64,000 nt of DNA from Yuukianura sp. NJ FZ-2021 (lineage: Eukaryota): the NCBI GenBank assembly GCA_046563655.1, contig CM102286.1, forward strand, positions 11,036,001 through 11,100,000, in the 5' to 3' direction. Positions 18,930 through 27,532 of the stretch are shown here, one piece after another; position 1 is the stretch's first letter; each line of letters starts with the position of its first letter. The position numbers and the translations under genes were made by a program. The notes below the pieces were generated by a model. The model was not told the origin of the DNA. It saw nothing but the letters and a program-made list of their open reading frames with translations, and did not search any database.

Positions 18930-21900
18930 TTAGTTATTGTCTTGACCATTCATTTCAGCGTTCATGAGGCTTTCTAAGTGAGCTGTAAGTTTTCGAACCG
19001 TCTGATTTTCCTGTATAGCGACAACAGTCACTTGACTGTTTTCAAAAATTTTTTGAAGACGATTGCGCATTTCAATGGTCATTAGAGAGTCTACTCCAAA
19101 CTCTGAAAAGAGTTTATCTGAATCCAATTGCTCGGCAGCATCAACCCGAAGCGTCTCCTTCAACATTGTGCAAACAAATTCTTCAATCTTTTTTCGTCTT
19201 TCCTGTGAATCAGTTATTTCTGTGAATTTTTTTCGACTGAATTTGTCTCCAGCACTTGCAGCCATAGTTGAATCCAAATTTTGAGAATTTATTTCATCCA
19301 AATAGTGTCCAAGGTTCACGACTCTTTTAACCGCAGTCCAGTCGAAGACTTCCACCACGGTACATCGAAGTTTATGTTCCTCCATGGCCATTTGGAGAGC
19401 AGCTAAGCCTTGGCTCGTAGAAAAGGTATTTACACCGTTCCGCGTTCTGTTGTAAAGTTCATGGTCAGATGCGCCTCCAACCTAAACCAAAAAATGTTTA
19501 CGCATTTGTCGCTTTTTTAGTATTTCATGCGAACAATACACTTTCCAATACAAACTCTATTAATACCTTTTCCCACGCGCCAAAATTGATGCTGCATGAT
19601 GGAAGACCCACTGAGTGTCGGTACTGCGCAAATGAATCAATGAATCCACATGCTGCTGCAAGGTTGCTATTTCCTAACCCGCCAAAGTTTGATGCTATAC
19701 TTGAAAACATAACGAAGAATTCAAGGTCACAACCAAGAGTCAACTTGTGCAAATTTACAGTCCCGTTAATCATTGGTTGGAAAACCATTTCAAACTTTTC
19801 CCACGACAAATTTTGAATTATTCCGGGTGCTAACACTCCTGCTGCGTGCATAATTCCGCGAATCGGCGGCAACTTTAAACTTTTCAAAGATTCGAAAAGT
19901 GCTTCTGCTTCTTTGTAAATTCCAACATTCTTTTGAACTGCCAAAGCTCGGCATCCATTTCCGTTCATACACTTCAAAGCTTCTTGGGCTTCAACTGAAG
20001 GTTTATCGCGTTCAACGAGCACAAGGTTGGTGGCGCCCAGTTTGATCATCCACTTGGCAACTTCCATACCGATCTCATCCAACCCGCCGGTGATAATGTA
20101 CGTACTCTGTGAATTGAAAAGACGCTTTACAAAATTGACGCGGCCTTCTGGTGAAATTTTAGTTTCCGGAATGGTGATCACAACTTTTCCAATGTGTTTT
20201 GCATCTTGAAAAAAAGAAAAAGCTTCTTGAATCTTGTCTATTGAAAATGTTTGGTGAGGAAGACTTGTGTAGGTGCAATTTTTGAATTCGGTTCCAATTT
20301 TTCTCATAAGACGGCAAACTTCCTCGTTAATCTGCAACATACCGTGGGACATGTCTACCAGAAAATATTTTACATCTGGACGTAGTGTCTTCACTTCGTC
20401 CTCGGTCCAAGTATGTACTTTTCCAATTTCAACAAATCGCCCACTTTGAGCACAAGCCCTGAGAGACGCTTTGAAACCTGAACCAATGAGTGAGTTAAGG
20501 ACAACGTTTACTCCAGCGCCTTTTGTGTCTTTCAGGATTTCATCCCCAAAATCAATACTTCTGGAGTGATAAACATGACTGATTCCAATTGATCTCAAGT
20601 ACGCTCGCTTTCGTTTAGTTCCTGCACTGGCATAAATCTCGGCTCCAATGCGCGTTGCAATTTGAATCGCCGCGAGACCAACACCTCCAGTTGCTGCATG
20701 AATCAGAACTCGCTCACCGGCATTTAGATTTACAAGCTCTTGAAGTACATAAAAACAAGTGAGAAATGCAACTGGAATTGTAGCTGCTGAGGAAAATGTC
20801 ATTTCCGCTGGTTTTTGTATTAAACATCGAGAGGAGACAGTAAGATGAGAAGCAAATCCATTCCCACGCCCAAATCCAAGTACAGCGTCACCGAGTTTAA
20901 ATTTGGTACAAGTGGGACCAACGGCTGAAACGATTCCCGCCACTTCAAACCCTGGTTCTTGGGCATAAGTGATCGAATCCTTGCATCTTTCTGGTTGAAA
21001 GATGAGAAACAAATCTCTGAAATTTAGTCCCGTTGCTCTTACGGCTACTTCAACTTCATCTTCCTCCGGATCCATTCTTGAAGCAGCAGAAATTTGCAAA
21101 TCACTCAAATTTTTGCTAACTGGCTTTGTTACTTGAAAGCAATTCGAATTTGGAAACGAAAGCGAATGTTTTGGACTTTCAGCAAGTACTAATCTCTGGT
21201 TGAACACTTTATCTTCTCTTAATGCTTTGAACATTTCGTTTTCTCTGGACCAAATCATCGCAAAAGTCTCGTCTACTTCCTTTTCAAAATCGAATCCATC
21301 CTGTTCAAGGTCAATGACTGTGAGTTTGAAATCTCTATGTTCGTTTGCGAAAGATCGAATGAAAGCTGCAGCCGTTGCAGAAGCTGGGTTTCCTGGTCCA
21401 GTGTCTCCAATGTAATAGACGCCACGCGTCACCAAAACTAATTTTGGTTTTGAAATTTCGTGTTCCTGAGCTATTGCCAGCTTCTTGCAAAGTTCAAAAA
21501 ATTCTCTGCATCGTTGTTGACTTGCGTCAGACAGTTCATTAGTCTCAGTCCATAGAAACACCACTCCTTCTAATACTTCACGTTCATCAAGCCCAGTATC
21601 GTAGGAAACGACTTTACGTCCATTTTGTGACAGCTTCAAAGTCAAGTTTGATTTCAGAAAAGAGCAATCTCCATGGACAATCCACGTTGATTTATGTGGA
21701 GCTGAGTGGACCATAGTCTCAAAGAAAGTTTTGTCGACGCGATCTCGCGTAATGCCGCTTGTTGGACGCCAAACTTCCTCCATAATTGTTGGTAATGATT
21801 CCGTTTCTTGACTTAATGCTCTCAAGAATTGAAACGCTGTCGTGTTAATGAATCTGACTCCTTCCATTATTGCCAAAATGTTTCCCCAGTCATTTGTCAA

Positions 21901-24900: not shown

Positions 24901-27532
24901 CATTCAGCTCGAACATAGCCATCGGCCCTTATAACCGGAAAAGTCTCATTTTAAGGATTATGATTTTATAATTTTCACCGTTTTACTCACCTCGCATCAA
25001 AAGATTTACACTTGAAATCCTTTGCAAAAGTGGGTGCGTCCGAAATTGTTCCACCACCGATTGGATTAAGGCTGCGGAGTACTAGGTTTACTCCAGCGGC
25101 AATTGCGATTTTCGAGCTTCCATTACGCAAGTTTTGACATGCAAGGTACAAAGCTGTTCCACTACTCGAACATCCGGTTCTGTAAAATAAAAAACATACG
25201 TTTTGGATTTTATATTTATTTTCGGAATTTTAAAAGGAAAACTTATTAATTTTTGTACTGAAAGAATCTCACTCTGTGCAGTAGTTGGGTCCATGAAGTC
25301 CAAGCAAATTTGTAATGCGTCCAGAGGTTGTGCTGAATGTATTTCCTAAGTAGACTCGAATGTAGTCGTCTGGATCCAGTCCATACTCTGGAAACCAACT
25401 CTTGTATTCGGATTGCCAAATGCCTAAATACACTCCCGTGTCACCTCCGCGCAAGTCGTTTGGATTGATGGCAGAATTTTCGAGACTTTCCCAAATCACT
25501 TCCAAAAGAAGACGTTGCTGGGGATCCAAAAACGGTGCTTCACGCGCACTAATTCCAAAAATTGAGCATCAAATTCATCTATCGGGCATTTTAAAAATCC
25601 CGCCTGAAAATTTTTATGTCGTCGTTTAGGTGGCGTGGTCTATTGGATGGAAATGGTCCAATGGGATTTTGACCACTGATGAGTAATTCCCAAAGTTCAT
25701 CGGCATCATTTGCTCCAGGAAATCTGCAACTCATACCCACCACTGCTATTGCCTTTTCCAAATCTTCTTGATGGTCTTCTTCTTCAGTACCATTTACCGT
25801 AATGTGGCCATTTTTATTTACATACCTATCTGCGCATTGCAGCAGATACGTTTTTGTATGGTCGTTCTGTTTAAAAACAGTTTAAAAAGTGTTATTGACC
25901 TTGTAGTATTTTGAAAATGAATTTCTTTTAAGCTGAAATAGATTAATATTACTACTATATATTTACTTCCATTTGTAGAATTTGTGGGACAATTTCCGTT
26001 TCAAATGTAGCCATCCATTTTTTCCTGATTTCTTCGCAGTCAAATGCCTTGCAAGAAGACTGTGCAATAGAAACATTGTTATCCTCCAAAATGGACGCGT
26101 CTTGATGACACCCTCCATTGCTGGAAAAGCCTTGCATGACTCTATTAATTAACATTCGAAATGAAATTGTAAAAATGATCATTAAGTAAAACATTGCTTC
26201 TAAATTTGTTTGCTTCTAAATTTTTCCATCTATACAAGATCTGTCCTGCCACTTACCGCAGCTTTTCCGAGGTAGACCCCAGTACTTGATGTTTTGAATT
26301 ACACAAAACGGAGGAAAATTTACAGCTCAAAATTTCCACCGCACGTCCTGATAAAAAGGAATGAAGCTTAAAATTACTTTCAGTTATTTTATGTTTGGAC
26401 TATACGGCCTTACTAGGGAAAGTCGTTTGGCTTAATTTCACGAGATGATCAAAATCCTCAAGACTCGGTTTAAATATGACAACCTTCGTCGAAATTTTTA
26501 TACCACAGTGAGAGTTGTGTTCAACAACAGCCGACACCGACGGATATAAAAACAGTTCATCCGAATTCTTGAGCAACTGTAACACCACAACGTGACGTAG
26601 TATACCAAATCATTAAAGAAACTCAAAAAACTAACAAAAGTATTCTGCTTAAAGTGGAATGTTGCTTGGTAATTCAAGTTAGGTAAGTTCAGCGTTATTT
26701 GAGATGAAGGTTCAGTTTAAATTAGGGTTGTTACGTGTAGTAAAGAGACGTGAATAAGACTCACGTAGGTCATGGGGTGAACGTAGACGCATTTAATCCA
26801 ATTGCGCAGACTCCACAGCCAAAATACGCCATGCTCTTTGTTCCCCACTTCGCTTGACTCAAACCCCAGTACCGTATCAAATTCTCTCTTTAGGAGTTTT
26901 CTGAAATTAAAATAAAATGCAGCTCTTTTGTGGTAAGATTATTACGTAACATAATGTTGAATTTGACTCGAAATCATAGACCAAATGTGATACTTACAGC
27001 GACCTAATTTTCTAGATTATCGTAGTTAAGTTTTAGCTTCTTTAAGTATAGGTATTTAAATACAGGTAACAAAATTTCTTTCGCTTTAAACAGCTTTAAA
27101 AGTTCTGACCAAAATCATAATTATAGTATTCATTATTAGAGCAGTTTTTTGTTGCAAGCGGTGTGTGTTTATAAGTTTAATTGTCAGCATAAAGTCAAGG
27201 AAAGAAATTGACTTGACCTATTAGTTCTGTTGTTAAGCATGCGTAACTTTCAAGTATTTTCATTTTTGCTACTGTTACTCATAGAAAAAAAAATGGTTTT
27301 ACCTTATTTCATTTGAAACGTCTTCCGAGATTGCAATGACCAAGGGCTTACTTGTCAACGAATTTCGGATTGATCTAGCGAGCACCAACGCTCCCCAGGC
27401 TTCTTCCTCATTGCTCGCCAACGTTACCCAACACTCGTCTTCTACATGCCAAATAAATAGCAATAAAAAATGACAATATATAAAAATACATAAGTGTATG
27501 CTTTATAGAATTTTTTTGTAACTACCCTTCAT
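18930..27532 (-). CDS. Type I polyketide synthase with an N-terminal glycogenin-like (GT8) domain: GT8-KS-AT-DH*-ER-KR*-ACP; two 1-bp frameshifts in the KS exon
   Basis: KS: IAVVGMSCRFPGA, DPQQRLLLE, TE|TGCSSS, EPHGTGT, KTNIGHSE. AT: GQGSQY, GHSAG, THAFHS. ER: LIHAATGGVG. KR fold: YIITGG, HAAG. ACP: GVDSL. Upstream exons 27526-27532, 27303-27441, 26765-26900, 26414-26576, 26257-26347 and 25967-26141 splice in phase into the KS exon at 25866. Confidence 0.88.

Follow-up and report, generated by a model that had tools for sequence, protein, structure and literature searches.

A 64,000-nucleotide stretch of the Yuukianura sp. NJ FZ-2021 genome (GenBank GCA_046563655.1, contig CM102286.1, forward-strand positions 11,036,001 to 11,100,000; "the window" always means this whole stretch) contains a type I polyketide synthase (PKS) gene, in which a glycogenin-like domain of the GT8 family appears to be fused in frame to the synthase. 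The reading we favour, with a probability of roughly 0.7, is that all of this is one gene, in which a horizontally acquired iterative PKS bears at its N-terminus a pseudo-glycogenin that has no catalytic role and acts as a scaffold or dimerisation domain. The gene lies on the minus strand from 27532 to 18930, bears introns, and comprises 11 exons and about 2,368 codons; its predicted domain order is pseudo-glycogenin (GT8-like), acidic linker and KS-AT-DH-ER-KR-ACP. No thioesterase was found in it by a Pfam scan.

Gene structure and the glycogenin-like domain

The exons were placed as follows (window positions):
Exon 1 (putative), 27526..27532, minus strand: ATG AAG G, followed by donor GTAGTT, phase 1; would give the start codon
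Exon 2, 27303..27441, minus strand: glycogenin-like domain, its N-terminal strand and helix, EDECWVTLASNEEEAWGALVLARSIRNSLTSKPLVIAISEDVSNEIR
Exon 3, 26765..26900, minus strand: ends at the former DxD site, now V-H-P-M-T-Y, aligned to glycogenin FLDADTLVL
Exon 4, 26414..26576, minus strand: LLKNSDELF...VVIFKPSLEDFDHLV, in the alignments the motif most conserved across the PKS-linked family (LVLKNCDxLF)
Exon 5, 26257..26347, minus strand: diverged part of the domain, with RRAVE replacing glycogenin DGGDQG; placed by open frame, GT/AG borders and phase fit
Exon 6, 25967..26141, minus strand: C-terminal part of the N-terminal domain, ending in ...KKWMATFETEIVPQILQME; donor GTAAAT, phase 0
Exon 7, 25273..25866, minus strand: acidic linker and N-terminal part of KS, with two -1 frame breaks near 25615 and 25560
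Exon 8, 24991..25179, minus strand: KS active-site cysteine TGCSSS; placed by open reading frame, splice sites and tblastn of PKS homologues
Exon 9, 24674..24927, minus strand: part of KS including HGTGT
Exon 10, 19567..24371, minus strand: C-terminal part of KS, then AT, DH, ER and KR; a single 4.8-kb open exon of 1,601 codons
Exon 11, 18930..19481, minus strand: ACP (GVDSLM) and stop codon; Pfam PP-binding, E 4e-12

The initial annotation had described six small minus-strand exons joined in phase 0 with the KS-opening exon, and both the exons and the predicted join were recovered. Exons 1 to 6 have a GT donor and an AG acceptor at every border, their phases (1, 2, 0, 1, 2, 0) chain, and together they make up 711 nt or 237 codons, encoding the same peptide as the one quoted there. 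Only the complete six-exon phase chain enters exon 7 in frame, with exon 6 as the sole exon whose phases bridge exon 5 to exon 7, and the phase 0 junction between exon 6 (end 25967) and exon 7 (from 25866) would be read through an acidic linker of ~35 residues to the KS start IAVVGMSCRFPGA. The N-terminal part of KS in exon 7 is recognised by Pfam (ketoacyl-synt, E 2.2e-11), and exon 10 gives matches to Acyl_transf_1 (1.7e-58), KR (3.6e-49), PS-DH, ADH_zinc_N and Ketoacyl-synt_C. Exon 7 contains no ATG upstream of the first KS strand, and thus the start of the KS must come from an upstream exon. Exon 2 is also without an in-frame ATG, and homologues begin 3-8 residues before the A/C-W/Y-x-T motif. 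As assembled, the coding sequence amounts to 7,105 nt, and it would reach 7,107 nt (3 x 2,369) after allowing two missing bases.

Scored against a profile of eight Pfam-confirmed GT8 sequences, the spliced 237-residue peptide reached 69.3 bits, the best of 1000 shuffles reaching 5.9; against P0139, a glycogenin-type protein with all the motifs, it scored 32.3 bits (best of 1000 shuffles, 5.5). A GT8 match of the N-terminal peptide, on which the initial annotation had made its proposal depend, was thus obtained. Exon 2 alone gave 19 matches in the PDB, all of them glycogenins, with glycogenin residues 3-45 aligned and a best E of 0.0045, while in the same database exon 3 found no match and exon 4 found no GT8 match (two unrelated ones, E 0.28 or worse). 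In a tblastn search of GT8 proteins against the whole 64 kb, all matches at E <=0.03 fell in exons 2 and 4 (E 1.7e-6 to 0.03 for exon 2 and 0.003-0.6 for exon 4), and an additional match at 54399-54467, within the elongation factor 2 (EF-2) gene, was at chance level (E 0.34).

The GT8 signal is limited to residues 1 to about 115-140 (58.1 bits), which align with glycogenin (GYG1/GYG2; CAZy GT8, Pfam PF01501) from residue 1. Residues 116-237 alone scored 3.5 bits against GT8, below the best shuffle of 11.4, and exons 5 and 6 show no significant GT8 similarity in profile scoring; the earlier statement that the peptide tracks glycogenin end to end is therefore not supported, the similarity being confined to its N-terminal half. 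Exon 5 is covered by the alignment of P0126, a PKS-linked member of the family, which extends to window residue 175. On these scores, the N-terminal domain is derived from a glycogenin-type GT8, the fold-defining N-terminal half of which is kept. Of all the explanations weighed, the least credible treats the exons as open frames arisen by chance, or as what is left of a decayed glycogenin with no relation to the PKS: the lack of significant similarity in exons 5 and 6 and the failure of single exons in Pfam could be read in its favour, but it is at odds with the distance between the peptide and its shuffles, with the coherent splice phases, and with the presence of the same domain on the PKSs of Folsomia, P0130 and L001 described below.

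The DGGDQG loop, the metal-binding histidine (in HFxGxxKPW) and the acceptor tyrosine are motifs of GT8/glycogenin, and their positions were taken here from P0139. In the alignment, the DxD site of the window reads H-P-M, compared with D-A-D in P0139, and RRAVE stands at the DGGDQ position; no alignment could be made for the regions of HFxGxxKPW and of the acceptor tyrosine, the C-terminal half scoring below shuffles. This pattern extends to the PKS-linked family, as seven of the eight other members aligned (three from Folsomia, P0126, P0127, P0131 and P0135) have x-P-x instead of DxD, and P0130 is the lone one that keeps it (DTD), with a histidine at the metal site. With the DxD, the DGGDQG loop and the metal-binding histidine region lost, the window domain is, on this alignment, catalytically dead and cannot transfer sugar. 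A working glycosyltransferase that glycosylates the polyketide or primes a glucan on the enzyme is very improbable. It would be in keeping with the glycogenin ancestry, the predicted GT8 fold of relatives and the residues retained by P0130, but the replacements and unalignable regions in the window itself, and the x-P-x of nearly all its relatives, speak against it. The window domain further differs from glycogenin in having no C-terminal glycogen synthase-binding tail and no alignable counterpart of the self-glucosylated tyrosine, and in being fused to a PKS, whereas glycogenin stands alone.

Two side observations concern the same site. P0130 may represent a form that is less degenerate or that still binds nucleotides, and the GT8-like DxD position of the metagenome relative L001 reads E-S-N.

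The fold was modelled on P0130 and P0126 as stand-ins for the spliced peptide of the window. The AlphaFold2 model of P0130, built on an alignment that included true glycogenins, had a pLDDT of 77 and a Foldseek E of about 5e-15, and that of P0126, the alignment of which consisted of PKS-linked members and the window exons only, had a pLDDT of 79 and a Foldseek E of about 8e-13. For both models glycogenin chains fill the first ~40 Foldseek ranks (TM 0.62-0.69), so that relatives of the window domain are predicted to have a GT-A fold, as glycogenin does; GT8 clusters are likewise matched by the ESM Atlas model of P0130. The GT8-like core shows 62-70% identity between the Folsomia paralogues, like AT (64-71%) and above DH (48-62%), which argues, at the protein level, for a core under purifying selection rather than a decaying leader.

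Recurrence of the fusion and the clade that carries it

The initial annotation had proposed a search for the same fusion in related genomes, and the architecture was found in three Folsomia candida PKSs, in P0130 and, as GT8-like exons upstream of the KS, in L001. The Folsomia protein P0077 (2,337 aa) has about 220 residues ahead of its KS, a region shared by two paralogues at 60-64% identity. A profile of the three Folsomia PKS N-termini found glycogenin-1 in the PDB at E 2.2e-6, and its 21 matches there comprised 19 glycogenins, one Skp1 alpha-galactosyltransferase, which we take to be a GT8-family enzyme, and one serine racemase (E 0.94); glycogenin was the best PDB family, far ahead of other GT8s. 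The window peptide scored 21.6 bits against the same profile, compared with 7.7 for the best of 2000 shuffles, indicating that the two N-domains are homologous. Both the PKS of the window and those of Folsomia begin with an N-domain of ~200 aa followed by KS-AT-DH-ER-KR-ACP, belong to the same clade and have lost the DxD as x-P-x. On the other hand, the identity of the Folsomia proteins to the window is only 33% for the PKS and about 26% for the N-domain, and they retain the KR tyrosine and the DH histidine.

A HMMER search of 1.84 billion representatives returned 21 proteins at E <=0.001, in 11 of which Pfam found PF01501; the others include short, degenerate relatives. P0130 is a single uninterrupted open reading frame of 246 aa, in which a GT8 domain runs straight into the KS start EPIAIIGVSCRFPEA, and Pfam assigns it both PF01501 (E 6e-4; 19.9 bits, under the gathering cut-off of 24.3) and PF00109. 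It is contained letter for letter in the ESM Atlas and hence looks like an open reading frame called on metagenomic DNA, so that P0130 would show the GT8-KS fusion without any splicing assumption. No longer fused relatives of P0130 were found among proteins of 432-2000 aa, a range shorter than a full GT8-PKS, and P0130 alone as a metagenome query matched KS starts only, at three bacterial loci.

L001 (a metagenome locus, 1-4272, 50% G+C) is the nearest metagenome relative, 48-57% identical to the window in KS/AT. Searched with the family profile, it contains an equivalent of exon 3 (675-935; 32.8 bits, E 4.8e-10 among 147 open reading frames) and one of exon 4 (10.7 bits), with the intron between them at the same place as in the window. 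These GT8-like exons lie on the same strand as, and upstream of, an unbroken KS exon, and the KS exon layout is as in the window. The metagenome scan, made with an AT-DH alignment, kept 80 loci, of which L001 alone falls in the clade of the window; bacterial PKSs dominated the scan, as the patterns FLFTGQGS and IY[CI]QPA[IT]F are generic, and the contigs of the clade members P0001 to P0003 are not among the 80 loci.

A tree of the KS-C/AT region was built with 31 rows: the window, L001, P0001 to P0004, the three Folsomia sequences and 22 other hits, most of them named bacterial PKSs, which remained from 27 picked after five without the anchor motif were dropped. The window, L001, P0001 to P0004 and the three Folsomia sequences form one group (SH-aLRT 100) on a long stem, and P0025, the nearest row outside, has a short helical leader immediately ahead of its KS. 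The window PKS is of bacterial type, within a eukaryote-borne clade that includes the PKSs of Folsomia candida, which is consistent with horizontal acquisition long ago. Both sub-branches of the clade include members with GT8-like N-domains, and this fits one old fusion.

The arrangement in relatives also bears on whether the window contains two transcription units instead, namely a small glycogenin-like pseudoenzyme gene ending just past exon 6 and a PKS with its own promoter. Readthrough of the exon 6 donor meets a stop after three codons, and three in-frame ATGs in exon 6 could start a PKS isoform, both of which would suit such a division. It is nevertheless improbable: no ATG precedes the first KS strand in exon 7, the six upstream exons form one phase chain leading into that exon, P0130 has GT8 and KS in one uninterrupted frame, the three Folsomia gene models are fused, and L001 has its GT8-like exons a short way ahead of its KS and on the same strand.

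The synthase, its frame breaks and its surroundings

Most catalytic motifs of the window PKS are intact, including those of KS (TGCSSS, HGTGT and NIGH, forming Cys-His-His), AT (GHSAGE and HAFHS), ER (GGVG) and ACP (GVDSLM, with the DSL serine). An AT with GHSxG and HAFH is of the malonyl type by the specificity rule. In KR, the catalytic tyrosine is replaced by leucine (NSNLAAAC) and the glycine motif GGLGGIG has become GGLDEIG; the tyrosine position is occupied by histidine in P0001, P0002 and P0004. In DH, the histidine of HxxxGxxxxP is replaced by tyrosine (DYRIAERIIFPGA), where all 13 other sequences aligned have histidine. The methyltransferase region of P0001 to P0004 is lacking. From these replacements, the KR and DH of the window are predicted to be dead; its sub-branch has, by the same motifs, a vestigial reductive loop, of which the window copy is the most degenerate. 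With both domains dead, the window PKS would, if expressed, make an unreduced or little-reduced malonyl-derived chain.

The KS exon has two uncompensated -1 frame breaks, ~75 codons into exon 7 and within 25540-25640, which, like the KR and DH losses, had escaped the initial annotation. Three-frame reading places the first near 25615, at an A5T4 run, and the second about 55 nt further on, near 25560, at a T5 run. AGFLKCPIDEFDAQF lies in the middle frame, between the breaks, and matches L001 at 14 of 15 residues; FGISAREAPFLDPQQR lies in the third frame, after the second break. The corresponding KS stretch of L001 is unbroken. A hidden intron was considered as the source of the breaks and rejected, as the pieces read in the three frames correspond to an unbroken series of KS residues in both L001 and bacterial PKSs. 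The breaks represent either local assembly errors or very recent inactivation.

These breaks are among the observations that weigh against the reading we favour. As assembled, they leave the window without a single unbroken protein, and the general assembly error rate is no explanation for them, since the EF-2 gene (844 codons), an internal control of assembly quality, is free of frame errors and no break occurs in the 4.8-kb PKS exon, with its 25 A/T runs of at least 5. Together with the DH and KR losses, they indicate that the window copy may be a dying gene. The identification of the domain has gaps of its own: the C-terminal half scores at shuffle level, Pfam GT8 was reached by none of the five GT8 exons singly (because they are too short), a Pfam scan of the Folsomia N-terminus gave no match, and an equivalent of exon 2 was not found in the 674 nt of upstream sequence of L001. 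All splices are inferred from sequence, the 7-nt exon 1 is a plausible guess, and the stop and the ATGs at exon 6 count here as well. The initial proposal of a single GT8-PKS chimera is supported in part, by comparison with the Folsomia PKSs, P0130 and L001; the window copy has two frame breaks and a domain that is demonstrably GT8 in its N-terminal half only.

Taken at face value, the breaks would make the locus a recent pseudogene, which once encoded a GT8-like-PKS chimera and now makes no protein. Two 1-nt deletions lie uncompensated within 80 nt of KS, the local assembly quality looks good from the error-free EF-2 gene and 4.8-kb exon, and in addition to lacking the methyltransferase region the window copy alone has the DH tyrosine and the GGLDEIG of KR. 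We consider this explanation unlikely on balance, but as the most serious competitor. It is opposed by a 1,601-codon exon without a stop and by the close match of AGFLKCPIDEFDAQF to L001 between the breaks; the intact KS, AT, ER and ACP motifs mean that any decay would have to be very recent. Two A/T-run contractions 55 nt apart are also what a polishing fault at this site would leave. At window positions 4051-4150, 100 N mark a scaffold gap, which makes this a draft assembly and likewise tells against a pseudogene.

The window has the character of an invertebrate animal genome, with a G+C content of 33-45% in 2-kb windows. The neighbours of the PKS are genes for a P450, an ionotropic-receptor-like channel (iGluR), a multicopper oxidase, an MFS transporter, dynactin, an ELO elongase and EF-2, together with FN3/DSCAM-like exons and a C2H2 zinc finger. 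Those placed by coordinates, the first four of which lie within 25 kb of the PKS, are:
P450, 724-2180
Multicopper oxidase, 11065-13185
MFS transporter, 32288-34427
ELO elongase, 43282-43983
Elongation factor 2 (complete), 52379-56033, plus strand, about 11 exons

A G+C-richer stretch contains two frames of ~270 codons that overlap almost fully on opposite strands (38094-38915 on the minus strand and 38098-38898 on the plus strand); the minus-strand frame has no Pfam match.

Origin, possible role and significance

Bacterial cis-AT single-module reducing PKSs of cyanobacteria and myxobacteria (Moorena, Scytonema, Sorangium) have the same KS-AT-DH-ER-KR-ACP order and are 33-35% identical to the window over 99% of its large exon. 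Unlike the window gene, they have no introns, keep the KR tyrosine and the DH histidine, and start, as in P0025, P0009 and P0016, with a short docking element or helical leader. A non-KS domain directly ahead of the first KS is also found in fungal SAT domains, in the GNAT of CurA and in coiled-coil docking domains, none of which is known to have a GT-A/GT8 fold; compared with such loading and docking domains, the N-domain of the window has no evident acyl-transfer residues.

A scenario that would accommodate these features starts with an old horizontal acquisition of a bacterial-type PKS by an animal lineage. The 5' exons of a host glycogenin gene could then have been captured, bringing a promoter and a start codon, and the loss of catalytic residues would have turned the domain into a non-catalytic structural module. 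Placed before the dimeric KS, in the position that a short coiled-coil docking element takes in bacterial relatives, it could serve as a dimerisation or scaffold element. The analysis shows the exon anatomy, the GT8 homology, the loss of catalytic residues, the recurrence of the fusion and the clade to which the PKS belongs; we infer the splicing and expression of the gene, the structural role and capture of the exons, and the product. Extended to the clade, this would mean that the PKS was domesticated in a soil-invertebrate lineage by way of 5' exons taken from a host glycogenin gene, and that the pseudo-glycogenin was kept clade-wide by purifying selection as a new N-terminal PKS domain replacing the docking element, either as a dimerisation scaffold or as a UDP-sugar- or glycogen-linked regulator or anchor. 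This broader proposal is tentative, and in its full form we judge it possible but short of probable.

The type I PKSs of Folsomia candida are reported as horizontally acquired (PMC5490193), and animal PKSs of bacterial origin have so far been compared almost only by their KS domains (PMC10764717, PMC7542773); two of these three studies state that KS domains alone were compared. No mention of a GT8 or glycogenin N-domain occurs in passages of the three papers, and in a full-text literature search no PKS with a GT8 or glycogenin domain was found described. The Folsomia sequences are already public, and it is the recognition of their GT8-like domain that appears to be new.

Bacterially derived animal PKSs could be the source of defensive and signalling polyketides in springtails, mites and other soil animals. 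A conserved pseudo-glycosyltransferase at the head of these enzymes would, if true, be a new PKS accessory domain, a clear case of a transferred gene built into host gene structure, and a simple marker for locating this PKS clade in genomes. It also makes testable the idea that a dead GT-A fold could work as a dimerisation or docking module, as well as the effect that removal of the domain may have on PKS assembly or product.

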